IMG/VR virus record: IMGVR_UViG_3300029309_000058
Span: 1 to 53,928 of that record
DNA: 53,928 nucleotides
Source: a virus
Taxonomy: Duplodnaviria > Caudoviricetes
Strand: one strand, 5' to 3'
Part shown: positions 22,013-37,014 of the stretch, piece by piece
How positions within the stretch are numbered: position 1 is the stretch's first letter
Layout of the letters: every line of letters begins with the position of its first letter
Made by a program: the position numbers and the translations under genes
The notes under the pieces: generated by a model
The model's input: the letters and a program-made list of their open reading frames with translations, nothing else
What the model was told of the DNA's origin: nothing
Databases searched by the model: none

Positions 22013-22196
22013 TGTTACCTCCTTGTGGATAAGCTATTTCTTTGTCGGGTATTTCGATGTACCCTCTTGTTACTTTATGTTTGAAGTAGAGATACCCATT
22101 GGCTCTGTGCATAAACATATAGCCGTTGAGTATCTCCTTACTTGCGTATTCAAACACCTCATCTATGTCGTGTTCAGTTACGAGTTGCCTAGTCAT
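21999..22196 (-). CDS. Hypothetical protein (65 aa)
   Basis: GGAGG RBS before ATG 22196. Confidence 0.6.
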   Translation of the reverse strand: MTRQLVTEHDIDEVFEYASKEILNGYMFMHRANGYLYFKHKVTRGYIEIPDKEIAYPQGGNNGSS

Positions 22197-23319
22197 GGAC
22201 ACCCTCCATGTATACGACCTCACCCCAAGGGGCAGTGCCTTTCATGTTGGATACCCATAAGACTGGATACGCAGGCTCGTCACCAAAGTCGTCACAACAC
22301 AGGTCTGTGAGTACGACACAAGCAACAGGATCAATGTCCTTGTCCTGCATGAATCTGAAGATAGGACTGAACGCAGTACCTCCACCACCATGTGGTTTGA
22401 TTACTGGCTCATCATCTTCAAAGCAGTCGTAGTGACAGACAACAGAGTCAAAGTAGATGACATGTATCTTGGTAGGCGATAAGTCTTGGTAGACTTTAGT
22501 AATCTCACTCGCAAACTGAGTGAGTTCCTCCTCGCCAATCGAACCCGATGTGTCGATAGCAAAGCATAGTTCACCTAGTGCTTCACCCGATACGCTCGGT
22601 AGATACATACCTTGTGACAAGAACCTCCTGTTTGGTCTTGCCCAAGTCCTCGTGTCAGTACGTTGCTTGACAAGAAACCTCTGCATGACATCTTTCCAAT
22701 TCACTCGTGGCTTCATCAAGTCACCAACGAATCGTTCAAGTCCTGCTGATAGTTTGCCCATCATCTTTGCAGACTGAGCCGCTTGAGCAACTTTGACTTT
22801 CCACTCTGCTTTCTTCTGCTCAATCTCAGCAGGGGAAGAGTTCTCCCCTGCATCTTCGATGTCATCGTATGGTTTCATTCCGTTACCATACCCACCATCA
22901 CCATCTTCGGGCATTGGTGGCAACAAGTTGTAGACACCATCGGTAGTACCACCACCTTGCTTGAGCAAGTCTCTGTCCATGACACCACCTTCGATGAACC
23001 TGCCAATGCCCTCGTCTTCAAGCATTGGATTGATGACAGCATCACCTGCATAGTTCCAACGCTTCGGGTCACGACCATTCAACCGAAAGATGTGTTCGAA
23101 CATAGGATGACAAACTTCGTGAGCAACGAGGAACAACAGTTCATCGTCTTTCAATGGCTCACAAAAGTTAGGGTTAAACAACACACGGCTACCATTGGTA
23201 GCCGCTGTTGGAACATCCTCTGATAATTCAAAGGGCATGTTCATTGCCAAGTTACCAAAGAACGGATGCTCAAGTATGAGTGCCGTCTTTGCCTTGGCGA
23301 TTCTTCTTTCTAAGTCCAT
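22189..23319 (-). CDS. DUF2201-type metallopeptidase-like + VWA domain protein
   Basis: TAATNG, HEVCH (HExxH), MIDAS DTSGS, GGGGT, LTD. Confidence 0.85.
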   Translation of the reverse strand: MDLERRIAKAKTALILEHPFFGNLAMNMPFELSEDVPTAATNGSRVLFNPNFCEPLKDDELLFLVAHEVCHPMFEHIFRLNGRDPKRWNYAGDAVINPMLEDEGIGRFIEGGVMDRDLLKQGGGTTDGVYNLLPPMPEDGDGGYGNGMKPYDDIEDAGENSSPAEIEQKKAEWKVKVAQAAQSAKMMGKLSAGLERFVGDLMKPRVNWKDVMQRFLVKQRTDTRTWARPNRRFLSQGMYLPSVSGEALGELCFAIDTSGSIGEEELTQFASEITKVYQDLSPTKIHVIYFDSVVCHYDCFEDDEPVIKPHGGGGTAFSPIFRFMQDKDIDPVACVVLTDLCCDDFGDEPAYPVLWVSNMKGTAPWGEVVYMEGVHD

Positions 23320-24170
23320 TAGTTACCTCCCATAAATGCACCCATCTTATCCATAATAGCCTTCGCTTCCTCAGCCTTGGTACGTCTGAGGTCGGGGTCA
23401 TTACGCAAACTTTCTGGGTGGTTGTTAGCCAAACTCCCCTCAACTTGTTGTCGCATGGCTTCCAAGTTCGGGTCGTCAGCAAAGTTCAACCGACTAAGTA
23501 TTGAACAGACTTCCTTAGTATTCTCTACCAAGGTATCTCTGAACACAGACTTAGGGTCGGCAAGTTTCTCAGCCATGTGTTTCACTCGGTCATACAATCT
23601 CTGCCAAGCTTCTTGCATAGCTTGTTGAGCCGCATCTTGTACTCTCGACTCAACGTCTTGCTGTATCTTTTCCAACTCCTCGTCACCAATACTCACACGG
23701 AAGTCATTGGATGGTACTGGAAACACAGCCATGTCCATCTTGAACTTACGTTGTATATCATGCAGAGCAGGATAGTCATTCCTGTTGTACAAGTTACCAA
23801 GGAATCTCTGTGCATCTGCATGCAGTCGTGGATACTCTTGGAAGAATGTATCAACAAGTTGTTGCCAGTCAGACTTCTCTTTTCTAAACTCTGTCATAAA
23901 GTTTAGGTAGTTAGCTGATGGCAACATCATCGTACCTTCGATACCCCAAGGTAAGGTGTTCGTGTAGAACTTCTTACGGATTAGGGTAGACTTCTGATGA
24001 ATGTTAGTCAGAGCATCGTTCATTGGTAGCAACGATTTGTTGTACCTACCTGCTGTCAATGCACTGGCATTCTGTTGGGCAACCTGTTCGGTTGCCCTCT
24101 TGTCATATTTTCTTGCTGTCCATTGAGAAATGTTCAACTGAACTAGCAATGCTTTATCGCTCAACTTCAT
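23319..24170 (-). CDS. DUF3150-like helical protein of the MoxR/VWA cluster
   Basis: GGAGGTAACTATG start at 24170; lies between the AAA and VWA genes; TLPW motif. Confidence 0.6.
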   Translation of the reverse strand: MKLSDKALLVQLNISQWTARKYDKRATEQVAQQNASALTAGRYNKSLLPMNDALTNIHQKSTLIRKKFYTNTLPWGIEGTMMLPSANYLNFMTEFRKEKSDWQQLVDTFFQEYPRLHADAQRFLGNLYNRNDYPALHDIQRKFKMDMAVFPVPSNDFRVSIGDEELEKIQQDVESRVQDAAQQAMQEAWQRLYDRVKHMAEKLADPKSVFRDTLVENTKEVCSILSRLNFADDPNLEAMRQQVEGSLANNHPESLRNDPDLRRTKAEEAKAIMDKMGAFMGGN

Positions 24171-24180
24171 AGTTACCTCC

Positions 24181-25173
24181 TTAGAATAGAACGTCTTGAT
24201 GGTTAATCGCCCACTTCGTGAACGCTTCATGTGATGCAAGGTCGGGGTTCTTACGACTTGCATACGATACACACAACACCGAGAACTCGGGCGACATACG
24301 TTCAGCGAACTTCACGATGTTTCCAAAGTTTTCTGTGGTTGCTCTCTCACCCAATGCACCAGTAAGTGCATAGCAAGTAGCAGGGTCATCGGGTACAGTC
24401 ACAGACATTGGTGACTGAATGATTGTATCGGGGTTAGGTAGCTTCCGTTCAATCTTCAAGAAGCCACTGAACTCAGCGGCACAACCTTCACCAACAGCAC
24501 CCTTGAATGTCTCGTACTCTGCTTCGGGTGGTACAACACCAATCATGTCAGCAACACCCTCGACCCAACTACGAGGTGATGGGTTCACATCTCTCTGTGG
24601 ATCAAAGTCATGTAGCAATGCAGTACGGAATCGAATGAATGATATGACAACAGGTTTCACTCCGTGGTCAATCGCCCATGATGTCCAGTCATCAAGGTGT
24701 GTCTCCAACTCATACACAGTCTCACGATTACGCAAGTGAGACAGCACTCTGTTAGCACCTGCCCTGTCTGCTTGTCTGTTACCAGTAGACACGACCATCC
24801 AACCTTTCTTCATTGGCTTGCCGTGTAGATTCCTAGCTTGACAGATGTTAGCCAACACCTTCTGCAAGTCTGCACTCGCTTGGTTTCTGTCATCGAAACA
24901 CAGGATACCTTCATTGGGTATGTCATCCCTGCCCTCGTATGGAAACCAATCGGGTAGCTTGTAGTGAAGCATGTCATCACCATTCGGATAGAGGATACCA
25001 AAGTCCTCCACCAACATGGTTGGCATATGCTTCTCGATGTATCCGACACCCAACTCCTTGGCAACTTCTTGCACGATGGTTGTCTTACCTCCACCCGGGC
25101 TACCTTCGATAGCGATAGTCCGTTTGGTTGGGAACAGATTTCTAATAGTTTCCTTCAACAATGTTGCTCGCAT
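24181..25173 (-). CDS. MoxR-like AAA+ ATPase
   Basis: GSPGGGKT; ILCFDDRNQA; STGNR; LRNR; PSPRSW. Confidence 0.85.
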   Translation of the reverse strand: MRATLLKETIRNLFPTKRTIAIEGSPGGGKTTIVQEVAKELGVGYIEKHMPTMLVEDFGILYPNGDDMLHYKLPDWFPYEGRDDIPNEGILCFDDRNQASADLQKVLANICQARNLHGKPMKKGWMVVSTGNRQADRAGANRVLSHLRNRETVYELETHLDDWTSWAIDHGVKPVVISFIRFRTALLHDFDPQRDVNPSPRSWVEGVADMIGVVPPEAEYETFKGAVGEGCAAEFSGFLKIERKLPNPDTIIQSPMSVTVPDDPATCYALTGALGERATTENFGNIVKFAERMSPEFSVLCVSYASRKNPDLASHEAFTKWAINHQDVLF

Positions 25174-25364
25174 TACGCACCTTCCTTTCTGTTATGGTTA
25201 TACTTGCGATGGTCAAAGCCATAGGATACGACTTGTTTGCCGACCCTAGTCCTCTTGGCGACTTGCTTGTCTGAGTAGAAGATGATGTCGCCCTTATCAT
25301 CTCGTACTGGTACTCCACCTTGATGCGTTCTCAGCATGAAGAGTTTCAACGTAGCCTTAGCCAT
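25173..25364 (-). CDS. Small basic hypothetical protein
   Basis: GGAG RBS; coupled to neighbours. Confidence 0.65.
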   Translation of the reverse strand: MAKATLKLFMLRTHQGGVPVRDDKGDIIFYSDKQVAKRTRVGKQVVSYGFDHRKYNHNRKEGA

Positions 25365-25563
25365 TAGTGACTCCTTCTATAATTTGTTGTGGTGTAAGGC
25401 ATGAGTTGTATTCAGTCCAAAGACTTTCATCCCATGTCTCACAACCTAACAACAGGTTGATAATTACAAAGGCAAGAAAGACACCAACACCTGCCGTTAC
25501 GACAAGTGCTAGTATCCATTCCAATACCTTTCGTTTAGTTACAGGGTGTCCGAACATAATCAT
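25357..25563 (-). CDS. Small single-TM membrane protein
   Basis: ATGA-coupled start at 25563; hydrophobic WILALVV...LLLG followed by C..C segment. Confidence 0.6.
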   Translation of the reverse strand: MIMFGHPVTKRKVLEWILALVVTAGVGVFLAFVIINLLLGCETWDESLWTEYNSCLTPQQIIEGVTNG

Positions 25564-25658
25564 AAGCTGAACAAACCCCATCCAAAGTAGATGTCTAGTA
25601 TGGAAACAGTAGCTGATGCCAATGCCCCCCATATAATCCACCATGTGATATCATTCAT
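25560..25658 (-). CDS. 32-aa hydrophobic peptide (MNDITWWIIWGALASATVSILDIYFGWGLFSL)
   Basis: AAGGAGG RBS; overlaps both neighbours; below the ORF-track cutoff. Confidence 0.6.
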   Translation of the reverse strand: MNDITWWIIWGALASATVSILDIYFGWGLFSL

Positions 25659-25863
25659 ACAAACCTCCTTTGTTGTTGATACCTTTCAGTTCTTTCTTGT
25701 TGGATATCACAACGTAGTTAGACTTGTGCATTGGTACGACTGTAAACTTACGCTTACCTGCCGTAACCTGTCCACATTCTAGACACGTTCGATAACCAAG
25801 TTGATAACGAGCAGGCATAACCTCCTCGATACCACAAACATTACAAGTATGTTTATCTGTCAT
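25651..25863 (-). CDS. DksA/TraR-like C4 zinc-finger protein
   Basis: CNVCG....PAR..LG.RTCLEC; GGAG RBS. Confidence 0.6.
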   Translation of the reverse strand: MTDKHTCNVCGIEEVMPARYQLGYRTCLECGQVTAGKRKFTVVPMHKSNYVVISNKKELKGINNKGGLYE

Positions 25864-25881
25864 TGTATCTCCCATAGTTAC

Positions 25882-25914
25882 AAAAAAAGAGAGCATGGTG
25901 TTACCCATGCTCTC
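25882..25914 (-). terminator. Intrinsic terminator/attenuator after the first gene of early unit 2
   Basis: GAGAGCATGG/CCATGCTCTC 10-bp stem, loop GTAACA, then T7. Confidence 0.8.
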
Positions 25915-25924
25915 CAATGAATGG

Positions 25925-26233
25925 TTAGGATAGAACTTCAATGTCGCTCTTTCTTGAAGCAGTCTTTGTAAGGTCACGCTTCTCCAACATGGCTAAGTAT
26001 GGCTTACCACCAAACCTCAAGCTAGCTAGCAGTACAGGTTGTTCTGCTTTGTTAGCATCGGGTACAAACAAGTTCATCTCATACTTCAACTTAGTAGCAT
26101 GCTCTTTCATCTTGTTGTACAACTCAGATACGTTCTCTTTGTTGAACTTACCTTCGGGATTAGGTCTGATGTTAACCTTCTTAGTCTTGTGGTTAGCAAA
26201 CAGTTCTACATTACCTTCGTATAATTTACCCAT
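25925..26233 (-). CDS. Early protein, paralog B
   Basis: AAGGAGG RBS; motif-level homology to 27328-27645. Confidence 0.8.
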   Translation of the reverse strand: MGKLYEGNVELFANHKTKKVNIRPNPEGKFNKENVSELYNKMKEHATKLKYEMNLFVPDANKAEQPVLLASLRFGGKPYLAMLEKRDLTKTASRKSDIEVLS

Positions 26234-26314
26234 GATATACCTCCTTTGTTAAGATCATTGGTATATCGACATAGGAATCTAGAGATATAATACTCTCGCC
26301 CTGCCGATTTTTAA

Positions 26315-26343
26315 AATTTATCAAATCGAAATCGTTTTGTAAA
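26315..26343 (-). promoter_or_regulatory. Sigma70-type early promoter P2
   Basis: TTTACA-17-TAAATT with extended TG; predicted +1 at 26308 (ATCGGCA). Confidence 0.65.
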
Positions 26344-26344
26344 G

Positions 26345-26808
26345 TTTTGGCGTCTTTACAAGATAAACGCAAGTTTAAACAAGTATCTATAAACACACAG
26401 CTTTATACATGTATAGTTACAGGATACCTACAGGTTATAGATACTGGAAAACATAAGTATAACAGCAGGTTACAACTTAGTATATAAACTATCTAGGTGG
26501 AATTAAGTAATACGTTGCTACTCTCGCTATCGTTATATCGTTGGTAATATCTTGCAGACAAAGGGTATATGTATAATTCATAGATAATTTAGATAAACTA
26601 GATAGTATTTCGCTTGTCATATGGCTAAAACGCAAGTAAATCAACGCTTAATGGTAACCTCGGTGTAAAGTTTAGGTATCTAAAACACAACATATTGTGT
26701 CAAGTTAGTAACTAGATAGCTAGATAGCCTGCAACTTTACATTCTAACGATAACATTATCTCCGTAAGTAACGTGCGATAACCCCCCGAACTATGGGATT
26801 ATATATTT
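26345..26808. other. AT-rich non-coding region with 9 TAGATA copies; candidate replication origin
   Basis: TAGATA at 26438, 26581, 26590, 26599, 26713, 26721; inverted at 26384, 26490, 26677. Confidence 0.45.
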
Positions 26809-26859
26809 AAAAAAATAAAAAAGAAAAAAGAAATAAAAAAAGAAAGGGGCCGAAGCCCC
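26809..26859 (-). terminator. Strong intrinsic terminator of early unit 1
   Basis: GGGGC-TTCG-GCCCC followed by ~37 nt T-rich tract. Confidence 0.85.
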
Positions 26860-26864
26860 AATCC

Positions 26865-27071
26865 TTAGTTTGATAGTATCCAAAAGTGATCCCATGACAC
26901 TCGCTTGTCTGTTGGTCTTACAAACTTAGCGATGCGTGGTAGTGAATCCAAGTTATTATCTTTGATTGCACGTTTTAGTTCGAGTAGTTTAGTTGTGGTT
27001 GCATCGAACATGTATTTTACATCTTCACCAGTTAATACTAGTGTGTCGTTTTTATATCTTACTTTGTACAT
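26865..27071 (-). CDS. Small early protein (68 aa)
   Basis: GGAGATAACTATG start. Confidence 0.7.
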   Translation of the reverse strand: MYKVRYKNDTLVLTGEDVKYMFDATTTKLLELKRAIKDNNLDSLPRIAKFVRPTDKRVSWDHFWILSN

Positions 27072-27077
27072 AGTTAT

Positions 27078-27121
27078 CTCCGTTAGTTGTGAGGGAGCCG
27101 AAGCTCCCTCGGTTGATGTTA
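27078..27121 (-). repeat. Intergenic UUCG-hairpin module, copy 2
   Basis: TAACATCAACC-GAGGGAGC-TTCG-GCTCCCTC-ACAACTAACGGAG. Confidence 0.8.
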
Positions 27122-27277
27122 CCTGACACAATGTATTTGTATCTGGTTAGCATAACAGACGTTCTTGTCTATCAGCTGTGACCAAGCCCAATTCTCAGCT
27201 TGTTTCTGAGAAAAGAACCATCTGAAGTAGAAAGAGTTATCTTCAATCCACGTCAACTTCACTGTGCGTTTATCCAT
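27119..27277 (-). CDS. Small early protein (52 aa, MDKRTVKLTWIEDNSFYFRWF...)
   Basis: GGAG RBS; sits exactly between the two hairpin modules. Confidence 0.65.
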   Translation of the reverse strand: MDKRTVKLTWIEDNSFYFRWFFSQKQAENWAWSQLIDKNVCYANQIQIHCVR

Positions 27278-27283
27278 GTTGCA

Positions 27284-27330
27284 CTCCATTGTTGCGAGTG
27301 GAGCCGAAGCTCCACTCTGGGTTGATGTTA
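27284..27330 (-). repeat. Intergenic UUCG-hairpin module, copy 1
   Basis: TAACATCAACCCA-GAGTGGAGC-TTCG-GCTCCACTC-GCAACAATGGAG. Confidence 0.8.
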
Positions 27331-27645
27331 AGCAAGCTTACGTTTCTTGCTTTTGGTAGTAGTCGACTTCTTCGCCATTGGCGGAAGCATAGTCAACTTC
27401 GGCTTGCCGAACTTGTCAGCCAATAAGACTGGTTCGAGATTCTTGGACTTCACTGGGAAGTAGAAGCTCCAAGTGTTAAGCGGAAGCTTTTCAGCCTTGC
27501 TCAACTCGTTAGCCTTAGCTAACAACTCAGAAGCATTTTCTGAATTGAAAGCGCCATCGATATCCTTTTCAAGGCGGATATCCTCTGTGCCGTCCTTGGC
27601 TTCGCCAGTGACAATAGACACATTACCTCTAAAGAGTTTACTCAT
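27328..27645 (-). CDS. Early protein, paralog A
   Basis: GGAGGT RBS before ATG 27645; homology to 25925-26233. Confidence 0.8.
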   Translation of the reverse strand: MSKLFRGNVSIVTGEAKDGTEDIRLEKDIDGAFNSENASELLAKANELSKAEKLPLNTWSFYFPVKSKNLEPVLLADKFGKPKLTMLPPMAKKSTTTKSKKRKLA

Positions 27646-27719
27646 GTAAACACCTCCGTAATGTGAGCATGGGCGAGTGCTCGGGTTATGCCCAATCGGT
27701 CTGTGTTGCCGATGATTTA

Positions 27720-27748
27720 AAGCTATCAAAACTATACACGTTTGTCAA
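27720..27748 (-). promoter_or_regulatory. Sigma70-type early promoter P1
   Basis: TTGACA-17-TAGCTT with extended TG; predicted +1 at 27713 (ATCGGCA). Confidence 0.7.
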
Positions 27749-27912
27749 GTATGAGGCTATACAAGGGTTTTAGAGCCTATATTTCTATAGCCTTATCATT
27801 GTTTATAAAATGTGTTTTAGGGGGGCACATGGATTGCGCGCGACAGCCACCCCCCCATATAAGTAAACCTCTCATAACAAGACCCAAAAAAAGGACGTGT
27901 AAAGTTTACTGC

Positions 27913-27940
27913 TTGACATAGTTTTGGTTTTCGGTATGAT
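27913..27940 (+). promoter_or_regulatory. Promoter for the terminase operon (leaderless)
   Basis: TTGACA-16-TATGAT; ATG 7 nt downstream; no SD. Confidence 0.65.
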
Positions 27941-27946
27941 TTATTT

Positions 27947-28423
27947 ATGGATACGCTACCATTGAAACATACTAAGTGGTCTGACCGTTTAGCTTTTGAT
28001 GTCGCTCTTATGTTAGAGGGCAGCGGCGAGTCTTTGGATGAAGTAATCGAAAGACATGCAATCAAAGCGGAAGACATAATCAAGTTCAACAAAGATCAGG
28101 TCTTTCTGAAGAAGGTCGAGTCTTATCGAAATGATATCCGTGATAAGGGTATGACATTCAAAGTTAAGGCCCGTGCTCAGGCAGAAGAACTCCTGACAAC
28201 TTCTTGGACTTTGATACACAGTCCCGATGTGTCCGCTGCAGTAAAGGCAGACCTCATCAAGTCTACTGTTAAGTGGGGCGGGCTAGAACCAAAGAATGAT
28301 GTTCTAGCAGAAGGAGGATCAGGTGGAGTTAAAATTACAATTAACCTCGGAGACCAAGAACACCGAGCAACTATCATTGACGCAGAGCCAGATGACGAAC
28401 CAGTTGCCCTCGGAACTTCTTGA
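27947..28423 (+). CDS. Putative terminase small subunit
   Basis: Position before terL; helical body with GVKITINLG C-terminal strand. Confidence 0.55.
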   Translation: MDTLPLKHTKWSDRLAFDVALMLEGSGESLDEVIERHAIKAEDIIKFNKDQVFLKKVESYRNDIRDKGMTFKVKARAQAEELLTTSWTLIHSPDVSAAVKADLIKSTVKWGGLEPKNDVLAEGGSGGVKITINLGDQEHRATIIDAEPDDEPVALGTS

Positions 28424-28709
28424 GAAGTTTAATACAGTCTACGAAGGTACAAAAGCTTGTAAGCTAACTAGTATGTTAGACCATGATACGTTGACAGCAC
28501 ATCTAAATAATTTAGGTGTACCTTATAAAACAAAAATTTTACGAAAACCTTCCACAGTATACTATGTATTACTTGTGGATAACTTGGGGATAGATCACGG
28601 AAACTGTGACAGATGCGGGGACAAACTTGTGGACATCTCGTGGTGCAAACATTGTGGAGATATGGGTTGGTTTGAAGAGTGGACTACAATGCAAGGGTAC
28701 TGGGGTTAG
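28392..28709 (+). CDS. Hypothetical protein with C-terminal Zn ribbon
   Basis: CDRC...CKHC; fills the gap between terS and terL; start uncertain. Confidence 0.55.
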   Translation: MTNQLPSELLEKFNTVYEGTKACKLTSMLDHDTLTAHLNNLGVPYKTKILRKPSTVYYVLLVDNLGIDHGNCDRCGDKLVDISWCKHCGDMGWFEEWTTMQGYWG

Positions 28710-30089
28710 ATGGAAATAGATTATACACCATCCAAAGTATGCAAAGAATTTATGCAGTCTGATGCAAAGATGCGTGTGCTTATGGGGCCTGTTGGTTCTG
28801 GTAAGTCAGTAGCAAGTTGTTTTGAAGTTATCAGACGAGCTACGATGCAGAAGCCTAACAAACAAGGAATCCGTAAATCACGAGTAGCGATTGTTCGTGA
28901 AACTGCCAGACAGTTACAAGATACAACCATTAAAACTTTTCACGATTGGTTTCCGCCCGGAATATGCGGAGACTATATGCGTACTACCAAAACATATTTC
29001 TTCAAGGTTGGAGATATAGAGTGTGAGATTATGTTTCGTGCTCTTGATGACTCTGACGATGTTGCAAACTTGAACTCATTGGAATTAACGTTTGCATGGT
29101 TCAACGAGTGCAGGGATATCAACCCTGACATTGTTGATGCTATGTCTAAACGTATTGGCCGTTTCCCGTCATCTAAAGACGGTGGGCCTTCTTGGTTTGG
29201 GATGTGGGGGGATACTAACCCTCCAACAATGGATACATGGTGGTATTATCAGATGGAGGGTTTAGACCCTTCAGATGGTGTAAGTCTTAATGATAATGGG
29301 TGGGATGTATTCAAACAACCTTCGGGCAGAAGCTCCTTGGCAGAAAATGTAAATAACCTGCCCGAAGGCTACTACGACACCCAAGGTAGATCAGATGAAT
29401 ATATTCGTGTGTATATAGATGGCGAGTATGGTTTAAGTTCTGCAGGTCAGCCTGTGTATAAATACTTCAAACCGGACTATCATATGGGACATGCAAAACT
29501 TAAACCTATAATTAACGGTGTGCGTCCAGTTGTGGTCGGAATAGATTTAGGCTTGACACCAGCGGCAGTTATAGGGCAACAAGACCCTCGCGGGCGAGTC
29601 TTGATTCTCGATGAGGCTGTGAGTTTCGATATGGGAATACAAAGATTTGTCCGCACCATTCTGCGCCCGTTGTTGACCGAGAGGTTCTCGGGCGCACCAA
29701 TCTTAATCATTACAGACCCTGCAGGAGTGCAACGTGCACAAACTGACGAGAGGTCTGCCGTGGACATCATAAAGGCCGAAGGTTTTAGAGTTCTCCCTGC
29801 TAAAACCAATAATGTGTCTGCAAGATTGTCTGCGGTAGACGACTTCCTTATGAGGCAAGTCGATGGGGACTCAGCGTTTTTAGTTGATCCCAGATGTACG
29901 CAGCTCAAGGCTGCAATGATGGGAGGATACAGATTCCATTACAAGAATGGCAATATTGATAAAAACAAACATTCACATGTGGCAGAAGCGTTACAGTATC
30001 TTATGCTGCACGTTGGCACTGCAGGTGAAGGCGGGTTTGTTGTACAGAGACGAGAAATAAAAAGGGTTGCGGCAGGAGGCTGGACTTGA
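28710..30089 (+). CDS. terL: Terminase large subunit
   Basis: GPVGSGKS; AWFNE Walker B; GDTNPP; GIDLGLTPA nuclease; SHVAEALQY. Confidence 0.92.
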   Translation: MEIDYTPSKVCKEFMQSDAKMRVLMGPVGSGKSVASCFEVIRRATMQKPNKQGIRKSRVAIVRETARQLQDTTIKTFHDWFPPGICGDYMRTTKTYFFKVGDIECEIMFRALDDSDDVANLNSLELTFAWFNECRDINPDIVDAMSKRIGRFPSSKDGGPSWFGMWGDTNPPTMDTWWYYQMEGLDPSDGVSLNDNGWDVFKQPSGRSSLAENVNNLPEGYYDTQGRSDEYIRVYIDGEYGLSSAGQPVYKYFKPDYHMGHAKLKPIINGVRPVVVGIDLGLTPAAVIGQQDPRGRVLILDEAVSFDMGIQRFVRTILRPLLTERFSGAPILIITDPAGVQRAQTDERSAVDIIKAEGFRVLPAKTNNVSARLSAVDDFLMRQVDGDSAFLVDPRCTQLKAAMMGGYRFHYKNGNIDKNKHSHVAEALQYLMLHVGTAGEGGFVVQRREIKRVAAGGWT

Positions 30090-30095
30090 TACAAT
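30067..30095 (+). promoter_or_regulatory. Promoter for the candidate sRNA, embedded in the terL 3' end
   Basis: TTGCGG-17-TACAAT with extended TG; +1 predicted at 30102. Confidence 0.55.
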
Positions 30096-30101
30096 TCGCA
30101 T

Positions 30102-30159
30102 ATAGTTACCTTCCGACTATGTTACCTTCAAACCCACTTGCTCCGGCAGGTGGGTTTTT
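30102..30159 (+). ncRNA. Candidate ~58-nt anti-RBS small RNA
   Basis: 5' hairpin AUAGUU-ACCUUCC-GACUAU, second GUUACCUUC, terminator; complementary to GGAGGUAACUAU. Confidence 0.55.
30130..30159 (+). terminator. Intrinsic terminator after terL / sRNA
   Basis: AAACCCACTTGC-TCCG-GCAGGTGGGTTTTT. Confidence 0.85.
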
Positions 30160-30175
30160 CTTGTATTTTAAAAAC

Positions 30176-30204
30176 TTGCATATATACTTGTTCCTATGTA
30201 TATT
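30176..30204 (+). promoter_or_regulatory. Promoter of the head/tail operon
   Basis: TTGCAT-17-TATATT directly after the terminator. Confidence 0.6.
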
Positions 30205-30231
30205 TAATTGTAAACTTATTGGAGGTTATTG

Positions 30232-30453
30232 ATGAAAGGACATTGTGGCAGTAAAAAATCCATCATCTATTCGGATAACCCGAAAATGGACACTAGTGGA
30301 ATGTCTAGTGTAATGACTATAGAAATGATGGAAGCAGGTGGGCCTGTAGAAGTAAAAGATATGGGCGCAGTTGTAAAGTATGGATCAGGTGGTAAAGTTT
30401 ATACAAACAAAAACGATAAAGACACCGAAGAAGACATGAAGGACATGGTATAA
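30232..30453 (+). CDS. Small hypothetical protein with xxGGxV motifs
   Basis: GGAGGT RBS; MEAGGPV, YGSGGKV. Confidence 0.7.
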   Translation: MKGHCGSKKSIIYSDNPKMDTSGMSSVMTIEMMEAGGPVEVKDMGAVVKYGSGGKVYTNKNDKDTEEDMKDMV

Positions 30454-30454
30454 C

Positions 30455-32488
30455 ATGGTACTGCAAGTCGTAGGAAATGAAGAACTAGTAAAGCAAGAAG
30501 AAGCTCTTACTAAACAACAGCTAGCTGAAAGGCAGAACCAACCTCTTATTTTAGGATTGGCAGACCACCTACGAACTTGTTGGGACGCAGCAAGGCAGGC
30601 GAAGAAACCTATTGAGCACATCATGCTACGAGCACTCCGTCAAAGAAACGGAGAGTATGAGGCAGATAAACTAGCACAGATTAACCAGCAAGGTGGGTCT
30701 GATGTTTACATGATGGTTACAGAAGTTAAATGTCGTGCGGCAGAAAGTTGGCTGCGTGATATTCTTCTTGATCAGGGTTCACCCCCGTGGGGTCTTGAGC
30801 CTACACCTATCCCTGACTTGTCACCACAACAGACATCAGAGATAGAGAACTCGTTTGCTGAGCAAGTTGTAAAACTTGTTGAGATGAACGGGCAAGCGCC
30901 AACACAAGAAGAAATGATAGAATTAAAAGAAATGGTAACACAAGATTACCGTTTCAAACTATTGCAGGGTGCAGATAACCGTGCAAAGAAAATGGATGTT
31001 AAGATTCGTGACCAGTTTACACAAGGTGGTTGGGGCGAATCATTTAATGAATTTATCACCGATTTGGTTACTTACCCATGTGGTTTTGTAAAAGGCCCTG
31101 TGGTTCGTAGGCAAAGAAAACTTGGCTGGAAATATGAAAATGGTAGAACTACTGTAGAAGCAGACGAGATTATTGCTCCAGAGTTTGAACGTGTTGATCC
31201 ATTTAGAATATATCCTGAGCCGGGTGTAACTAATCTTAATGATGGTTATTTGTTTCAGCATCATCCGCTAAGTCGTTCAGAGCTTGCAGACCTTATAGGT
31301 GTGCCGGGTTACGATGAGGATGCCATCAGGGACGTTCTTGATATTGGTAATGGTACATCTTGGTTTAGTGAAGATGTAGAACTTACTAAAGAGAACGAAG
31401 AAAGAAAGTTTCATACGTTCAACAAACCAACTACAACTTATGATGCTCTAGAGTTTTGGGGTAAAGTAAGTGGTAAGATGTTGAAGGAGTGGGGTCTTTC
31501 TGAAGAAGAAATACCTGATGAAGCAAAAGAGTATGATGCTAACGTTTGGGCCGTAGGTAACTATATCATTAAAGCAGTATTAAACTACGACCCGTTAGGA
31601 GAAAAACCATATGCTAAGACATCGTTTATTAAATGCCCCGGTGCGTTTTGGGGTAAAGGTATACCAGAAATTATTGAAGATTTGCAGAACATTTGTAACG
31701 CTGCTGCAAGGGCTTTGGTCAACAATATGGGGATATCTTCCGGCCCGCAAGTCGAAGTTAACCTCGAAAGAATCCCGCCCAACGAAGACATCACGCAGCT
31801 CCACCCGTGGAAAATCTGGCAAGTCACGAACGACCCGTTAGGTTCTAGTGCACCTGCTGTTAGATTTACACAACCGGATGACAACGCAAATACGTTGTTA
31901 GGTGTTTATGATAAATTTTCTAAACTAGCTGATGACCAATCAGGCATACCATCTTATGTTTACGGCGACTTAAATGTACAAGGCGCTGGTAGAACATCTT
32001 CTGGTTTGTCTATGTTGATGGGTGCAGCTGGTAAAGGTATTCGTCAAGTTGTTATGCACATAGATAACGAAATCATCAAACCTATTGTTCACAGACAGTT
32101 TGTGTACAACATGCGTTATGATGAAGATGAATCAATTAAAGGCGATGTTAACATTGTACCAAAAGGTGCAGTTAACCTTGCAGTCAAAGAGACTGTAAAT
32201 GTTCGCCGTATCGAGTTTCTTAATGCAACCGCCAACGAGGTTGATATGCAAATTGTTGGTAAGGAAGGCCGTGCAGCGATTCTTCGTGAAGTGGCTAAAG
32301 GGTTGCAAATGCCTGTGGATGACATTGTTCCATCTAGGGAAAAAGAACGATTCCAAGATAAGGTTAAGGCGCAGATGCAAGCTCAACAGCAAGCTCAGCA
32401 GCCTACACCGACTCAGCCGGATGGTTCTCCCAAAGGAGGAATGGATGGCAACACAGTGAGTAACCGTGACACTGGAGGTGCTGGATGA
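30455..32488 (+). CDS. Portal protein
   Basis: 677 aa after terL; RVDPFRIYP, FWGKGIPE, SGIPSY.YG..GAGRTSSGLSMLM; Q-rich tail. Confidence 0.85.
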   Translation: MVLQVVGNEELVKQEEALTKQQLAERQNQPLILGLADHLRTCWDAARQAKKPIEHIMLRALRQRNGEYEADKLAQINQQGGSDVYMMVTEVKCRAAESWLRDILLDQGSPPWGLEPTPIPDLSPQQTSEIENSFAEQVVKLVEMNGQAPTQEEMIELKEMVTQDYRFKLLQGADNRAKKMDVKIRDQFTQGGWGESFNEFITDLVTYPCGFVKGPVVRRQRKLGWKYENGRTTVEADEIIAPEFERVDPFRIYPEPGVTNLNDGYLFQHHPLSRSELADLIGVPGYDEDAIRDVLDIGNGTSWFSEDVELTKENEERKFHTFNKPTTTYDALEFWGKVSGKMLKEWGLSEEEIPDEAKEYDANVWAVGNYIIKAVLNYDPLGEKPYAKTSFIKCPGAFWGKGIPEIIEDLQNICNAAARALVNNMGISSGPQVEVNLERIPPNEDITQLHPWKIWQVTNDPLGSSAPAVRFTQPDDNANTLLGVYDKFSKLADDQSGIPSYVYGDLNVQGAGRTSSGLSMLMGAAGKGIRQVVMHIDNEIIKPIVHRQFVYNMRYDEDESIKGDVNIVPKGAVNLAVKETVNVRRIEFLNATANEVDMQIVGKEGRAAILREVAKGLQMPVDDIVPSREKERFQDKVKAQMQAQQQAQQPTPTQPDGSPKGGMDGNTVSNRDTGGAG

Positions 32489-32706
32489 TAAATCCAAAAC
32501 CAGAGGTTATTCAGTCTTTAGCAACCGTGTGTCGTCAATATCCTGAAGTGCTTAATTGGCTGAAGGAATGGCGTGATCACGAGCTACAGAAGCTACCGAG
32601 TGTCTTGCAAAACACGGCGCTTGCACAGGGGCGGTGTCAAGTTTTGTCAGAAGTTACTAAAACAATAGAACAGTCCCCTGAAACGTTTTCAGCAAAGTCA
32701 AAATGA
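32485..32706 (+). CDS. Small conserved post-portal protein
   Basis: ATGA overlap; AQGR motif. Confidence 0.7.
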   Translation: MINPKPEVIQSLATVCRQYPEVLNWLKEWRDHELQKLPSVLQNTALAQGRCQVLSEVTKTIEQSPETFSAKSK

Positions 32707-32740
32707 CAGCTGTTAATTACGCACACCGATAGGAGCGATT

Positions 32741-33748
32741 ATGTCAATACCAAAGCAAGTTCAGAAACAATCAGAGGAAGTACAAGAGTTGTACAAGCAG
32801 ATTAACGGAGAAACAGAAGAAGCACAGGCAAATGCCGAGGCTACTCCTGCAGAGGCTGTTAATGATGTGGCAGAACCTACAACTTCCGACAGTGTAGAAG
32901 GACAAGCACCTCAGTCTGAGCCGCAAGAGCAAGCGGAGTCAGGCGACCAAGAACCGAAACAAGATGACTGGCAACAGAAATACAGATCGTTGCAAGGGAT
33001 GTATAATGCCGATGTTCCTAGGCTTAATGCCGAGAACAGAGACCTTTCTTCCCGTGTGTCTCAACTAGAAGGACTGCTAAGCTCAATGCAAGAGCCTACT
33101 CAACAAACACCAGTTCAGTCTGAGAAATTAATTACAGATGACGATGTTAAAGAGTACGGCGAATCCATTGCTGTTATGCGGAAAGCAGCTCGTGAGGAAG
33201 TTTCTCAAGAGATTGCACAGTTGAAACAACAACTAGGACAACTTCAAGGTGTTTTACCTCAAGTACAGCAGGTACAAGCACAACAGAAGAAGTCTGGCGA
33301 ACAAACGTTCTGGAACACTATTGCTAGCGAAGTACCAAACTGGAGTAATATTAACAACGATCCTGACTTTCAGTCATGGTTGTTAGCGATTGATCCACTA
33401 ACTGGTATTAGCCGACAGACTTATCTGGAAGATGCACAAAAGAATCTGGATTCAGGTCGAGTGGTTAACTTTTTTAGAACTTGGGAAGGGGCAAATGGTA
33501 CGACTAATACTGCTCAAGTTGACCGTAGTTCTGAGCAATCTCAGTTACAGAAACAAGTTGCTCCGGGGCGAAGCCGGAACAATGGTGTAAAAGCTTCTGG
33601 ACAGAACCGAACATATACCCCGAATGATATTCAAGAGTTTTATGCTGATGTCAGGAAAGGTAAATATAAGGGGCGAGATGATGAACGAGGTCGAATCGAA
33701 CGTGACATTTTTGCTGCACAGCAAGAAGGTCGCATTAACGTTGCTTAA
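32741..33748 (+). CDS. Capsid scaffolding protein
   Basis: Acidic Q/E-rich, WQQKY coiled coil, located between portal and capsid. Confidence 0.75.
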   Translation: MSIPKQVQKQSEEVQELYKQINGETEEAQANAEATPAEAVNDVAEPTTSDSVEGQAPQSEPQEQAESGDQEPKQDDWQQKYRSLQGMYNADVPRLNAENRDLSSRVSQLEGLLSSMQEPTQQTPVQSEKLITDDDVKEYGESIAVMRKAAREEVSQEIAQLKQQLGQLQGVLPQVQQVQAQQKKSGEQTFWNTIASEVPNWSNINNDPDFQSWLLAIDPLTGISRQTYLEDAQKNLDSGRVVNFFRTWEGANGTTNTAQVDRSSEQSQLQKQVAPGRSRNNGVKASGQNRTYTPNDIQEFYADVRKGKYKGRDDERGRIERDIFAAQQEGRINVA

Positions 33749-33768
33749 TTAACAAAGAGGAGGTCATT

Positions 33769-34674
33769 ATGGCTTTTGCAACATCATCCGGGCATCCGCA
33801 GTATACCGGGAATTTTATTCCTGAGATATGGTCGGGCAAGCTCATTGAGAATTTCTACGATGCTACGGTATTGTCAGCAATCTCAAACACTGATTACGAG
33901 GGTGAAATTAGAAATATGGGCGATACCGTCAATATTCGAACCACTCCCGAAATCACAATACAAACCTATGTTAAGGGTCAAACTCTATCCGTAGAGAATC
34001 CTGACAAGGCTAAACTACAACTCGTAATTGATAAAGGTGAATACTTTGCCTGCGTTGAAGACGATGTTGACCAAGTACAGACAGACATGAATCTAATGGA
34101 CATGTGGTCGAAAGACGCTTCTGAGCGTATGAAGATCAAAATTGACCAAAGGGTTCTTGCTGATGTTCTAACTGGTGTATCCGCAAACAACAAAGGTCAA
34201 ACAGCTGGAGCAATCTCTGGTAATATTGATCTTGGTGTAGCAGGTACTCCCGAAGCGCTTACTACTACAAACGTGATTGGTAAGATCGTAGACATGGGAA
34301 CAGTTCTTGACGAAGCTAACTGTCCTGAGCAGAATCGTTTTCTTGTGATTCCTGCTAAGATGGCTGGTCTAATCAAGCAATCAGACCTTAAAGATGCGTC
34401 TATCACTGGTGACGGAAGTACACCATTGAGAAACGGGCGTCTTGGTATGATTGACAGGTTTACTGTTTACGTTTCTCATAACCTCGTAAAAAGTGGTAAT
34501 GAGTTCAGCGTTATCGGTGGTCATACAATGGGCTTCACATTTGCATCTCAGATGACAAATATGGAAACCATTCGTTCTGAAACAACTTTTGGTAACATCA
34601 TTCGTGGTCTTCAAGTATACGGCTATAAAGTCGTTAAGCCTGAAGCTCTTGCGACAATGATCGTTACAGTATAA
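33769..34674 (+). CDS. Major capsid protein (P22-coat-like HK97 fold)
   Basis: FIPEIWS, NTDYEGEI..GDTVNI, RGLQVYGYKVVKPEAL. Confidence 0.88.
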   Translation: MAFATSSGHPQYTGNFIPEIWSGKLIENFYDATVLSAISNTDYEGEIRNMGDTVNIRTTPEITIQTYVKGQTLSVENPDKAKLQLVIDKGEYFACVEDDVDQVQTDMNLMDMWSKDASERMKIKIDQRVLADVLTGVSANNKGQTAGAISGNIDLGVAGTPEALTTTNVIGKIVDMGTVLDEANCPEQNRFLVIPAKMAGLIKQSDLKDASITGDGSTPLRNGRLGMIDRFTVYVSHNLVKSGNEFSVIGGHTMGFTFASQMTNMETIRSETTFGNIIRGLQVYGYKVVKPEALATMIVTV

Positions 34675-34685
34675 GGGGGTAAATT

Positions 34686-35144
34686 ATGGCTACTTATAAC
34701 GATGGTAAAGGATACAAACTTGGTACTGGTGCAGCACACGTTGCTAAAGGCATCAATAAAGTTTCATCCATTAGCGTGGACTTGAACTTTGCGACTATCA
34801 CTACTGAGAGGGCAGCAGCTGGTCTGACTGCACTTACAAGTGCTGATATTCTTGAAGTAATCAGGATTCCTGCAAACACATACGTCACTAACGTGGCTCT
34901 GAATGTGACAACTGCCGAAGGCGGAACACTGACTGTTGATGTCGGTGATGGCGATAACCCAGATGGATATATTGATGGTGTTAACGCTAATGCTACAGCA
35001 GCATATCTTACTGTTGCTGGAACAGACGCTTACGAGTCTGGCAAGTATTACACAGCAGCTGATACGATTGACATTGTTCTTAACAATGCTGCAGACGCAG
35101 CGGTTATGACTTTGACAGCCGTAATGGTTGACTGCTCAGAGTAA
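34686..35144 (+). CDS. Capsid decoration/cement protein
   Basis: Follows the capsid gene; beta-rich, IPANT, VGDGD motifs. Confidence 0.6.
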   Translation: MATYNDGKGYKLGTGAAHVAKGINKVSSISVDLNFATITTERAAAGLTALTSADILEVIRIPANTYVTNVALNVTTAEGGTLTVDVGDGDNPDGYIDGVNANATAAYLTVAGTDAYESGKYYTAADTIDIVLNNAADAAVMTLTAVMVDCSE

Positions 35145-35156
35145 TCTAAATTAGTC

Positions 35157-35180
35157 GGGGGGCTTCGGCCCCCCTACTTG
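35157..35180 (+). terminator. UUCG hairpin after the capsid genes (leaky terminator or stabiliser)
   Basis: GGGGGGC-TTCG-GCCCCCC with weak U tract. Confidence 0.6.
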
Positions 35181-35199
35181 TACACGAAAGGAGGTACTT

Positions 35200-35370
35200 A
35201 TGGGTAAAGGTATGAAACATTATCTTCGAGATGGAACTGAGCATAAAGGCACTATGCACAAGATGGCTAATGGAACTTTGCATACAGGTAAAACACATAC
35301 AGCTAATAGTAAAAAATTGTTTCATTTTAAAGATTTGAGCAAAGCAGCGCAAAAAAAGGCTAAGGCATAA
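35200..35370 (+). CDS. 56-aa His/Lys-rich protein
   Basis: AAGGAGGT RBS; MGKGMKHYLRDGTEHKG...HKM...HTGKTH. Confidence 0.75.
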   Translation: MGKGMKHYLRDGTEHKGTMHKMANGTLHTGKTHTANSKKLFHFKDLSKAAQKKAKA

Positions 35371-35615
35371 TGGCTAAAATCGACAAATCTAAAATGGCAT
35401 GTAACAAACCGAAGCGTCAAGTTTCTGGTGGTAAGAAGTTTGTTGTAAAAGCGTGTCAGAATGGTAAAGAAAAAATTATTAGGTTTGGCGATGCGAATAT
35501 GAAGATTAAAAAGAATCAACCGGGCAGGCGCAAGAATTTTCGTGCAAGGCATGGGTGTGATACACGACCACCCTCCAAAATGACTGCTCGTTATTGGTCG
35601 TGTAAGAAGTGGTAA
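35370..35615 (+). CDS. Small basic protein (DUF6321-like)
   Basis: IRFGD.NM...RRKNFRARH.C...ARYWSC.KW. Confidence 0.75.
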   Translation: MAKIDKSKMACNKPKRQVSGGKKFVVKACQNGKEKIIRFGDANMKIKKNQPGRRKNFRARHGCDTRPPSKMTARYWSCKKW

Positions 35616-35619
35616 TATT

Positions 35620-35775
35620 ATGGCAGCACCAAAAGTAAAATCTAAGAAAGACGCTTGTTACCATAAGGTAAAAGCTCGCTACAAAGTTTGGCCATCAGCA
35701 TATGCTTCAGGAGCTTTGGCTAAATGTAGAAAGGTTGGTGCAGCTAACTGGGGCAACAGTAAAAAGAAGAAGTGA
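35620..35775 (+). CDS. 51-aa basic protein (DACYHKVKARYKVWPSAYASGAL..CRK)
   Basis: Open frame missed by the track; motif typical of marine phage small proteins. Confidence 0.75.
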   Translation: MAAPKVKSKKDACYHKVKARYKVWPSAYASGALAKCRKVGAANWGNSKKKK

Positions 35776-35776
35776 C

Positions 35777-36034
35777 ATGGGTAATGTAAGAAAAACAGAA
35801 GCTGGTGCTAACTTACAAAGATGGTTCAAGGAAAAGTGGGTAGATGTAAGAACAGGCAAGCCGTGCGGAAGACAAAAGGGAGAAAGTCGTGCTTACCCTT
35901 ATTGCCGCCCGTCTAAGCGAGTATCATCCAAAACCCCCAAAACGTCCAAAGAACTCACGGCTTCTGAAAAACGCAGTCGCTTGGCTCAAAAGAAAAGTTC
36001 GAAGAAAGTTGAAAGAGTTACAAGAAAAACGTAA
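35777..36034 (+). CDS. Small basic protein (DUF5872-like)
   Basis: LQRWFKEKWVDV..GKPCGR...YPYCRP; true start 35777. Confidence 0.7.
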   Translation: MGNVRKTEAGANLQRWFKEKWVDVRTGKPCGRQKGESRAYPYCRPSKRVSSKTPKTSKELTASEKRSRLAQKKSSKKVERVTRKT

Positions 36035-36058
36035 TATGAAAAAAGAAAGGCGGTAAAA

Positions 36059-36373
36059 ATGACAAGATGGTTAAGAAACATTCAAGATGGTGAGATTTAT
36101 GGTTGGAATGAGATTCTAGCTGAAAACCCACTCACTGAAGAAGTTACTGAAGAAGAGGCATTTCCTGAAAAGCATATGCCTAAAAAACAACGTGGTCGTC
36201 CGGCAAAGGTAGATTTAAAGACAGAAGATATCCCTGATCCAAAAGGTGAAACTCCACCTGAGTTAGCTGAAGAAGCTAGTAAAGGTTTAGAGCGAGCTAG
36301 AAACGATAAAGGACATTATATAAAAGATGATCCAAACACACCAGAAAACGAAGCATGGGTTGAAAAGAAGTGA
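36059..36373 (+). CDS. Hypothetical head-associated protein
   Basis: KQRGRP AT-hook-like motif; RAR..KG....DDP.TPENEAW. Confidence 0.7.
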   Translation: MTRWLRNIQDGEIYGWNEILAENPLTEEVTEEEAFPEKHMPKKQRGRPAKVDLKTEDIPDPKGETPPELAEEASKGLERARNDKGHYIKDDPNTPENEAWVEKK

Positions 36374-37014
36374 TATTAAATGATGTAATAACAGAGGCAA
36401 GACGAATACTACAGGATACTGTATCGCCACAAAGATATAGTGATACTGTAATGTTAGGTTTTGCAAACCAAGCGTTAAAACGTATTGCTGTTTTGCGACC
36501 TGATCTGTTTGCTATTATTGCAGATATACCTACTACACAAGATGCTGTAGTACAAGCAATGCCTGCTGATTCAATTCGTTTGTTAGAAATTTATTCTGTT
36601 AAAGGTGGTAATGGCATTATTGAAACTAATAGAGAAATATTAGATCAATCACTGCCAACTTGGATGAATACTACTGCTGGCCCTGCTATTAATTTTATGC
36701 GTCATGTTAGAAATGCAAACAAGTTTTTTATATATCCAAAAGCTCCTGCTAATCAAACATTGATAGGTGAGTATGCACAAACTCCTCCTGTATATGATGG
36801 TACAACTACAGTCGCTTTACTACCTGATGCTTACTTTCCTGTTGTTATAGATGCAACTGTGTTTATAGCTGAGTCAGTAGATAATGAGCATGTTAATTCA
36901 AATAGAGCACAATTATTCCAAACTTCGTTTACCCAAGCTCTAGGGGTGGCTGCACAAAGCAGAGCAATCACTGATACAGAACGAGGCGGATTAGATGAGG
37001 AGGATGTTGCATAA
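36370..37014 (+). CDS. Head-tail adaptor (DUF6682-like)
   Basis: ARRILQD..RYSD..N.A...RPD, FFIYP motif; position. Confidence 0.65.
   Translation: MILNDVITEARRILQDTVSPQRYSDTVMLGFANQALKRIAVLRPDLFAIIADIPTTQDAVVQAMPADSIRLLEIYSVKGGNGIIETNREILDQSLPTWMNTTAGPAINFMRHVRNANKFFIYPKAPANQTLIGEYAQTPPVYDGTTTVALLPDAYFPVVIDATVFIAESVDNEHVNSNRAQLFQTSFTQALGVAAQSRAITDTERGGLDEEDVA

Follow-up and report, generated by a model that had tools for sequence, protein, structure and literature searches.

The stretch of DNA analysed here, called the window, is the complete virus record IMGVR_UViG_3300029309_000058 of an uncultured marine phage (53,928 bp, 41% G+C), and the element in question is a putative small regulatory RNA (sRNA) unit located in the 142-nucleotide (nt) gap 3' of the terminase gene terL. 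The rightward genes are ordered as a possible terS, terL (28710-30089), a 73-amino-acid (aa) open reading frame (ORF), portal, major head protein, and tail genes. The leftward genes span from about 28 kb down to 9.6 kb and include those for a family-A DNA polymerase, an SNF2 helicase, a DUF927 primase-like protein, and a Gam-like protein. They also comprise a triad (22189-25173, minus strand) of an AAA_5 ATPase (330 aa), a 283-aa DUF3150-like protein, and a 376-aa DUF2201_N metallopeptidase and VWA-like protein, which is kept in all ten relatives examined and is referred to below as the AAA-DUF3150-VWA triad. The sequence of the unit was compared among relatives with the start regions of these genes, above all that of the 283-aa gene.

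The match of the 283-aa protein (23319-24170, minus strand) to Pfam DUF3150 is weak (E 8e-4, below the cutoff). Among phage records it matched only three, all from cyanobacterial phages (Synechococcus and Planktothrix hosts) at approximately 30% identity, and DUF3150 is annotated in one of the three. A blastn search of the window against phage records returned no match, and a tblastn search with TerL retrieved relatives at no more than 43% identity, i.e., no close cultured relative; the best match, Pseudomonas phage Rollin (43% identity), has only a 9-nt gap after terL and no intergenic unit. Within IMG/VR, at least 599 viral contigs encode a close relative of TerL and at least 460 a relative of the 283-aa gene, and the relatives analysed here were drawn from the best 80 contigs of each scan. 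Genomes and loci among them are designated with G and L numbers, respectively. A contig scan for the host matched eight contigs of metagenome-assembled genomes with mixed taxonomic labels, so that no host can be named. No lysogeny gene was found among the window proteins scanned against PHROGs or Pfam (10 + 10 + 5, a small part of its genes).

Architecture of the unit and its candidate targets

The last codons of terL contain a -35-like hexamer, TTGCGG (30067-30072, plus strand), which is followed, after a 17-nt spacer, by the extended -10 element TGaTACAAT (30087-30095), where TG is provided by the terL stop codon TGA (30087-30089) and TACAAT occupies 30090-30095. The predicted sRNA, approximately 60 nt long (30102-30162, plus strand), would extend from a start located 7 nt past the -10 hexamer to a U-run, both ends being predicted. 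It opens with a first copy of the seed, AUAGUUACCUUCC (30102-30114), which forms the 5' arm of a hairpin and its loop ACCUUCC; the 3' arm, GACUAU (30115-30120), shows only one-sided changes in relatives (U-G/U-A, A-U/G-U). The second copy, GUUACCUUC (30121-30129), is predicted to be single-stranded and best fits the gene starts at 22012 and 19587. The motif GUUACCUUC is thus present twice, once in the loop and 5' arm and once in the single-stranded stretch, and is complementary to the Shine-Dalgarno (SD) sequence and spacer of six genes. The unit is closed by an intrinsic terminator (30130-30162), with the composition that defines such elements: a stem at 30130-30157 (12 pairs, six of them G-C) with the loop CUCC, followed by TTTTTCTT. 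This terminator ranks first of 18 terminator-like sites in 20000-39999, and the fold of the whole unit has a minimum free energy (MFE) of -23 kcal/mol (z = -4.66), with none of 200 shuffled sequences as stable.

A simple promoter scan does not list TTGCGG-17-TGaTACAAT, because TTGCGG fits TTGACA at only three of six positions. The whole window gave no match to Rfam at the gathering score, and the seven matches returned in E-value mode for 30040-30240 were all far below threshold, the best being istR (18.4 versus 45 bits).

Six leftward genes begin with (G)GAGGUAAC followed, after 1-2 nt, by AUG, their starts lying at 14627, 19587, 21138, 22012, 23319, and 24170. The main predicted target is the start of the 283-aa gene, GGAGGUAACUAUG (24168-24180, minus strand), where GGAGGTAACTAT forms a 12-bp pairing with the unit including one G-U; UAGUUACCU of seed copy 1 pairs with GGAGGUAACUAU of this gene. 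The others, all on the minus strand, are the starts of the 376-aa gene (22189-23319; GGGAGGUAACUAAUG, 23317-23331), a 371-aa gene (20023-21138; GAGGUAACUAUG, 21136-21147), a 135-aa gene (14220-14627; again GAGGUAACUAUG, 14625-14636), a 61-aa ORF (21827-22012; GGAGGUAACAAUG, 22010-22022), and a 98-aa ORF (19291-19587; GGAGGUAACGAUG, 19585-19597). The best net cofold binding in the window is at the start of the 376-aa gene (-19.7 kcal/mol). The start motif occurs in 6 of 28 leftward versus none of 38 rightward gene calls (Fisher p = 0.004), and the four plus-strand AGGTAAC sites all lie inside genes.

Much of this anatomy had been proposed in a sequence-only reading of the window. Every letter of its TTGCGG-17-(TG)TACAAT arrangement at the terL 3' end was confirmed, together with the offset of 7 nt to the unit, and the MFE structure is exactly the fold that it had described, with an AUAGUU/GACUAU stem, the ACCUUCC loop, a second single-stranded copy, and the terminator. 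Its 12-bp pairing with one G-U at the 24170 start was likewise recovered, as were the motif sites at five other leftward genes and at no rightward gene.

Between the terminator and the next gene, a second promoter-like block can be recognised (30161-30204), readable as TTGCAT-17-TATATT or TTGTAT-16-TATACT. Most relatives have its core, GTATA(T)ACT, in the same position; in clade D, the block reads TAGACA-17-TATACT. The block is probably the promoter or operator of the structural operon.

Conservation of the unit and co-variation with the 283-aa gene start

The anatomy of the unit is conserved among relatives. The sample consisted of 116 loci containing the terL end and at least 110 nt beyond it, which were reduced to 70 distinct sequences. 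The terL stop codon is TGA in 67 of them, and 64 have TTGCnn at the -35 position, 17 nt upstream. In 63, TAnnnT directly follows the stop, taking the form of 19 different hexamers; in one collection of relatives, the extended -10 was seen in all 77 loci with downstream sequence. Conservation of the columns after the stop is.99 for T,.96 for A, approximately.45 for three positions,.93 for T, and approximately.33 afterwards, which is the signature expected of a -10 element. In the Val codon, the wobble T that is part of the TTG is 96% conserved versus 34-83% at the other wobble positions of the last eight terL codons. A hairpin followed by a T-run was found by an automatic rule in 61 of the 70 sequences, and eight of the nine missed have, by eye, a G+C-rich hairpin with an interrupted T-run. 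The locus L195, whose TerL C-terminus is 72% identical, lacks the unit, the next gene directly following terL. In clade A, to which the window belongs, UAGUUACCU and GUUACCU are invariant in 12 of 12 sequences, and the pairs of the terminator stem are kept through changes while its loop varies. The six bases between the -10 and the seed also vary in this clade, so that invariance sets in exactly 7 nt past the -10 hexamer, at the predicted +1 (30102).

From clade to clade, the interval between promoter and terminator is highly variable, the predicted RNAs being 47-106 nt long. Pyrimidines make up 67% of the transcribed 5' part, and anti-SD-like 5-mers occur in 50 of 61 sequences versus 27.0 +/- 3.6 in shuffles (maximum 39 in 500); with a strict definition of the motif, the count is 43 of 61 versus 14.6 +/- 3.3 expected. 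Distant clades carry CACCUCC, which matches the 3' end of 16S rRNA. The predicted probability of being unpaired is 0.65-0.95 for most pairing segments.

The preference for leftward genes was evaluated in the window and ten related genomes or large contigs, using crude gene calls and start regions from -20 to +10. The score was the top-3 contiguous complementarity of the RNA 5' part to the start regions, compared with 200 shuffled RNAs. For leftward starts, the p-values per genome were.005,.045,.08,.18,.47,.02,.19,.015,.01,.01, and.005, i.e., p <= 0.05 in 7 of the 11, whereas none of the 11 was significant for rightward starts (.60,.98,.14,.075,.71,.70,.53,.48,.36,.14, and.72). In all 11 genomes, median net cofold binding, inclusive of the unfolding costs, is more favourable for leftward than for rightward starts (Mann-Whitney p < 0.05 in seven). 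Orthologous genes recur among the best targets. Those of the window's clade are the 376-, 283-, 371-, and 135-aa genes; in clade D (G007), the RNA has another sequence and so have the start regions, yet the first three ranks are taken by orthologs of the 283-, 376-, and 371-aa genes.

The unit also co-varies with the start region of the 283-aa gene. Ortholog alignment of this gene provided 80 further loci, 32 of which hold both the gene start and the terL end. With 23 representatives of distinct RNA types, own RNA/start pairs were compared with permuted pairs, yielding a z of 5.7 when scored by contiguous complementarity and of -5.6 when scored by duplex energy; the observed value was not reached in any of 20,000 permutations (p <= 5e-5), these permutation p-values being inexact and overstating independence, since the representatives share ancestry. 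The co-variation persisted among 15 deep representatives (z = 4.4) and among the 14 left after exclusion of the window's clade and its look-alike L174 (z = 4.1-4.2, p = 2e-4). The signal is confined to -25..+15 of the start codon, seven flanking 40-nt windows (-145 to +175) all having |z| < 1.5. No signal was obtained in controls with the starts of terL (z = 1.3 and 0.07) and portal (z = 0.1 and -0.7), nor with the downstream neighbour gene of the unit (own versus permuted z ~0), and co-variation was not significant with reversed or reverse-complemented RNA. That these controls, run on the same genomes, were null speaks against relatedness and composition being sufficient to generate the signal. 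Weaker signals were found at other leftward genes, namely the 330-aa (z ~2), 376-aa (2-3, contiguous score only), 230-aa (2.7-3), and 152-aa (2.3-3) genes. Cis sequestration of the next gene's SD by the unit was considered and rejected, the downstream neighbour having given no own-versus-permuted signal.

The sequences that pair differ between lineages. The pair is GGAGGUAACUAU(GAA) in clade A, GAGGUAACUAUGAA in L174 (14 nt, perfect), and AUGAAUGAAAC plus three G-U pairs in L147, where it extends with gaps to +15. In L145, UCAAUGAAAC is accompanied by GGAGGU, and at -2 a C-G pair replaces the G-C of L147. The pair of L177, GGAGAAAUGAA, is perfect over 11 nt, extending to 12 pairs when the base immediately 3' of the stop codon is included, and L200 has the same helix with transitions that leave G-U pairs. 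Further pairs are GUGACAACU in L192 and AAUGAGUAAA in clades C and C' (G003, G008), where the protein starts with MSK instead of MKL. Within the ribosome-binding window, complementarity has been kept through evolution by two-sided changes.

Two side observations were made in relatives. The Ser4 codon of the 283-aa ortholog is UCU in L147 and AGU in L145 and L153, and the 5' hairpin region of the RNA differs correspondingly in L147, L145, and L153 (GUCAUCCGAC, GUCAUCCAAC, and GUCACUUGAC, respectively); in L153, GUCACUU pairs with AAGUGAC at +9..+15. In the genomes G001 and G002 (loci L107-L112), GAGAGG is found 20 versus 2 and 14 versus 2 times, respectively, on the leftward- versus the rightward-coding strand and often serves as the SD of leftward genes, an observation for which no explanation was found. 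GAGAGG was tried as a barcode of clade B and rejected: it is strongly strand-biased, but the clade-B RNA pairs poorly with its own 283-aa start region.

Elsewhere in the window, the 2846-aa ORF at 843-9383 has no Pfam match at E <= 0.01 and has orthologs of similar size in relatives (2768 aa in G002, 2693 aa in G001). The top sigma-70-like site in 20-40 kb, TTGACA-16-TATGAT (27913-27949), ends 6 nt upstream of the ATG of a 158-aa ORF at 27947 that lacks an SD and may be translated from a leaderless mRNA. Gene calls there are uncertain, since the site is overlapped by a leftward ORF (27817-28077) that has orthologs in relatives.

Interpretation and competing explanations

Judged from sequence, it is reasonably probable that the unit is a trans-encoded phage antisense sRNA directed against start regions of the phage's own leftward early/replication module, chiefly that of the 283-aa gene. 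A sigma-70-type extended -10 promoter built into the terL end, with TG from the TGA stop and TACAAT next to it, would give rise to an RNA of about 60 nt, which would stop at the strong terminator that it has in common with the terL mRNA. The terminator being shared, the sequence of the unit would also be present in the terL 3' untranslated region (UTR). Through its 5' end and loop, the RNA would be complementary to sites of translation initiation in leftward genes of the early/replication module. First among these would be the 283-aa DUF3150-like gene, located between those of the AAA ATPase and the VWA/metallopeptidase-like protein, joined in the window's clade by the five further leftward genes with the GGUAAC spacer. 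All of the pairing falls in the region where an sRNA, once bound, blocks 30S binding. The predicted pairing, at approximately -12 to +3 in the window and up to +15 in other clades, would cover the SD and AUG, thereby excluding the 30S subunit from the mRNA and reducing the translation of these genes. The contigs of four small-share RNA runs did not cover 29741-30257 and are uninformative, neither for nor against this reading.

The sequence-only reading had likewise proposed an sRNA aimed at the phage's own leftward mRNAs, a proposal that has gained a conserved promoter motif and terminator, the anti-SD enrichment, the leftward preference, and the co-variation with the 283-aa gene. What the sequences show is the anatomy of the unit, its conservation, and its co-variation with the target start; action as an RNA, repression, and the timing, be it an early-to-late switch or lysis delay, are inferred. 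Its notion of a regulon defined by a GGUAAC barcode holds only for the window's clade, whereas other clades pair at the spacer, AUG, or first codons and have one recurrent target, the 283-aa gene. The co-variation of seed and ribosome-binding site (RBS) motif, which it had suggested examining, is borne out for the start of the 283-aa gene (z = 5.7), but clades E and E' break the rule. A seed lost from relatives that retain the RBS motif, which it had regarded as grounds for abandoning the idea, is nearly what was found, only in these two lineages.

Several observations weigh against the sRNA interpretation. The 283-aa gene is outside the window's five best targets by net cofold energy, and half of seed copy 1 of the window lies in a stem (probability unpaired 0.53). 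Pairing with the 283-aa start is weak in L162, L164, L173, L180, L187, and L198 (contiguous scores 4.5-7). The seed of clade E (L164, G006), whose own start region has diverged, is ancestral-looking and fits the start region of clade A (score 13) better than any of its own (8.2), and clade E' (L173, G005) combines the clade-A start region with a seed that is disrupted. Neither the -10 hexamer nor the 5' hairpin is present in L178, which has kept the terminator and the seed, with a 14-nt match to its own start region, while L177, L200, and L206 have a TAG stop, no TAnnnT, and the complementary stretch right after the stop; some lineages would therefore need the terL 3'UTR or processing, and not a promoter of their own. 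A first comparison across genomes, in which whole 5' parts were set against all start regions and scored by the mean of the five best duplex energies, gave an own-genome advantage for the window only; the ortholog-based tests have since replaced it, but its weaker and partly negative outcome stands. The ancestry shared by the representatives belongs here too. Finally, transition-type mismatches in own duplexes show no G-U excess (16 G-U versus 14 A-C, p = 0.43), so that the complementarity is not marked as RNA-level over a DNA-level inverted repeat.

This last point bears directly on the likeliest of the alternatives, namely a protein-binding or recombination site that is present after terL and, inverted, at the leftward starts, without any RNA pairing. 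The balance of mismatches suits it, and as DNA the complementarity is a plain inverted repeat with six leftward copies. We nevertheless regard such a site as unlikely. The co-varying stretch is always found in -25..+15 while its register moves between SD, spacer, AUG, and first codons, and an operator has no reason to track the ribosome-binding window; moreover, the copy after terL lies exactly between a conserved promoter motif and terminator, with the predicted +1 as its first base. The proteins compared with PHROGs or Pfam (10 + 10 + 5, a small fraction of those that the window encodes) included no recognised recombinase.

Quite unlikely, in our judgement, is a general anti-SD decoy, i.e., a CU-rich RNA that mimics the 3' end of 16S rRNA and acts broadly on strong SDs, whether of the host, the phage, or both, or else on a host factor that binds pyrimidines, and not on one specific phage gene. 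The complementarity of many clades does not stop at the SD core but continues into spacer and codons specific to the gene, own pairs score better than foreign ones, and rightward genes with strong SDs show no preference. The family-wide anti-SD enrichment, CACCUCC in distant clades, and the weak co-variation of other leftward genes (z ~2-3) are what a decoy would have in its favour.

It is very unlikely that the hairpin is an ordinary operon end that only terminates the terS-terL transcript, with hexamers and complementarity due to chance or composition. The terminator is indeed real and strong, the simple promoter scan gave fewer sites than shuffles and left this one unlisted, and Rollin has only its short gap after terL; however, termination does not need the invariance of TGA/TAnnnT or the conserved wobble T, and would not give a co-variation of z = 5.7 with nulls for terL, portal, the neighbouring gene, and the flanking windows. 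A late leader comparable to lambda PR'-6S-tR', where a functionless short RNA is terminated until an antiterminator allows read-through to the portal and head genes, seems hardly probable. The order of promoter, short transcript, strong terminator, and structural genes is as it would be in such a leader, but a second well-conserved promoter-like block separates the terminator from the next gene, a leader does not explain why the unit co-varies with an opposite-strand gene at a distance of 6 kb, and no antiterminator gene was identified, none having been specifically searched for. A small leftward protein gene can be dismissed almost entirely: on the minus strand, GGAAGGTAACTATATG opens a 35-aa ORF (29994-30101) antisense to the terL end, with SD and ATG well spaced, but the ATG is missing in many clade-A relatives, the frame elsewhere closes after approximately 5-17 codons, and minus-strand RNA shows no co-variation signal, so that this ORF was rejected as not conserved and is most likely the mirror image of the seed.

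Comparison with known regulatory RNAs

The closest parallel among phages is the c4 antisense RNA of P1 and P7, which blocks the ribosome-binding region of the icd/ant mRNA and is the basis of P1/P7 heteroimmunity. As is predicted for the unit, c4 is a small phage RNA whose short complementary stretches, apparently located in loops, bind a phage transcript at the RBS and prevent its translation, with a specificity that varies with the sequences of related phages (PMC12197685). The unit has two short exposed stretches complementary to the target around the RBS. The c4 RNA sits in the leader of the operon that it controls and is cut out by processing, whereas the unit is not in the leader of a target operon, having its own putative promoter at the terL stop and its own terminator, and its predicted targets are minus-strand genes at 14-24 kb, approximately 6-16 kb away from this plus-strand element. 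Furthermore, c4 serves lysogenic immunity, and the present phage is without lysogeny genes among the proteins scanned. The c4 family of Rfam did not match the unit even at E <= 10.

A bolder extension, to which we assign a low probability, would read the unit as an 'address label', by which an sRNA of the packaging transcript silences the AAA-DUF3150-VWA module, or a wider leftward regulon in some clades, of any genome that matches. It would then be both an early-to-late switch for the phage itself and a specificity determinant between co-infecting relatives. If this were true, the system would be comparable to P1/P7 heteroimmunity, in a large clade of lytic-looking uncultured marine phages, and the rewriting of seeds and starts (clade A, L147, L145, L153, L177/L200, and L192) would reflect diversifying selection from phage-phage competition.

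MicL/DapZ-type sRNAs derive from 3'UTRs, with a promoter in the upstream coding sequence; they are bacterial, Hfq-dependent, and act on host regulons. The unit resembles them at the sequence level in having its promoter motif in the last codons of the upstream gene and sharing that gene's terminator, and, as predicted, in a seed at or near the 5' end and in trans action on start regions. It differs in that the parent gene is a phage terminase and the putative targets are the phage's own genes. P22 sar and lambda OOP are short cis-antisense phage RNAs with intrinsic terminators that repress by pairing, sar at the RBS. Being transcribed opposite their target, they are perfectly complementary to it, whereas the unit is trans-encoded, with a partial complementarity (9-28 nt) that is kept by co-variation. 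In the staphylococcal Rsa RNAs, exposed pyrimidine motifs (UCCC) target the purine-rich SD, and the unit similarly exposes pyrimidine motifs in loops or single-stranded stretches against the SD. Sequence and host are different (RsaF scored 16 bits versus a gathering score of 60 bits), and pairing in the unit reaches into gene-specific spacer and codons.

Control by sRNAs exists during lytic infection, as reported for an sRNA of PLE acting on ICP1 and PLE and for a phage sRNA acting on host replication (10.1101/2022.04.08.487710; 10.1101/2024.10.31.621285). A search of the literature, based on listings and abstracts and not amounting to proof of absence, retrieved no sRNA at a terminase 3' end and no anti-SD phage sRNA of this kind. 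Few phage regulatory RNAs are known, mostly from temperate phages of model hosts, and here a whole candidate family, from uncultured phages and with a predicted target that is clear, co-evolving, and conserved, emerges from sequence. Its natural variants would be ready-made orthogonal pairs of sRNA and start region, whose pairing rules can be tested in a heterologous reporter without phage culture, and it would offer the first regulatory handle on the unexplained AAA-DUF3150-VWA gene triad. Set beside the systems above, the unit may be read as a widespread family of phage antisense sRNAs, of which the principle is established, while the family, its position, the self-directed early-module target, and the natural co-variation are new.

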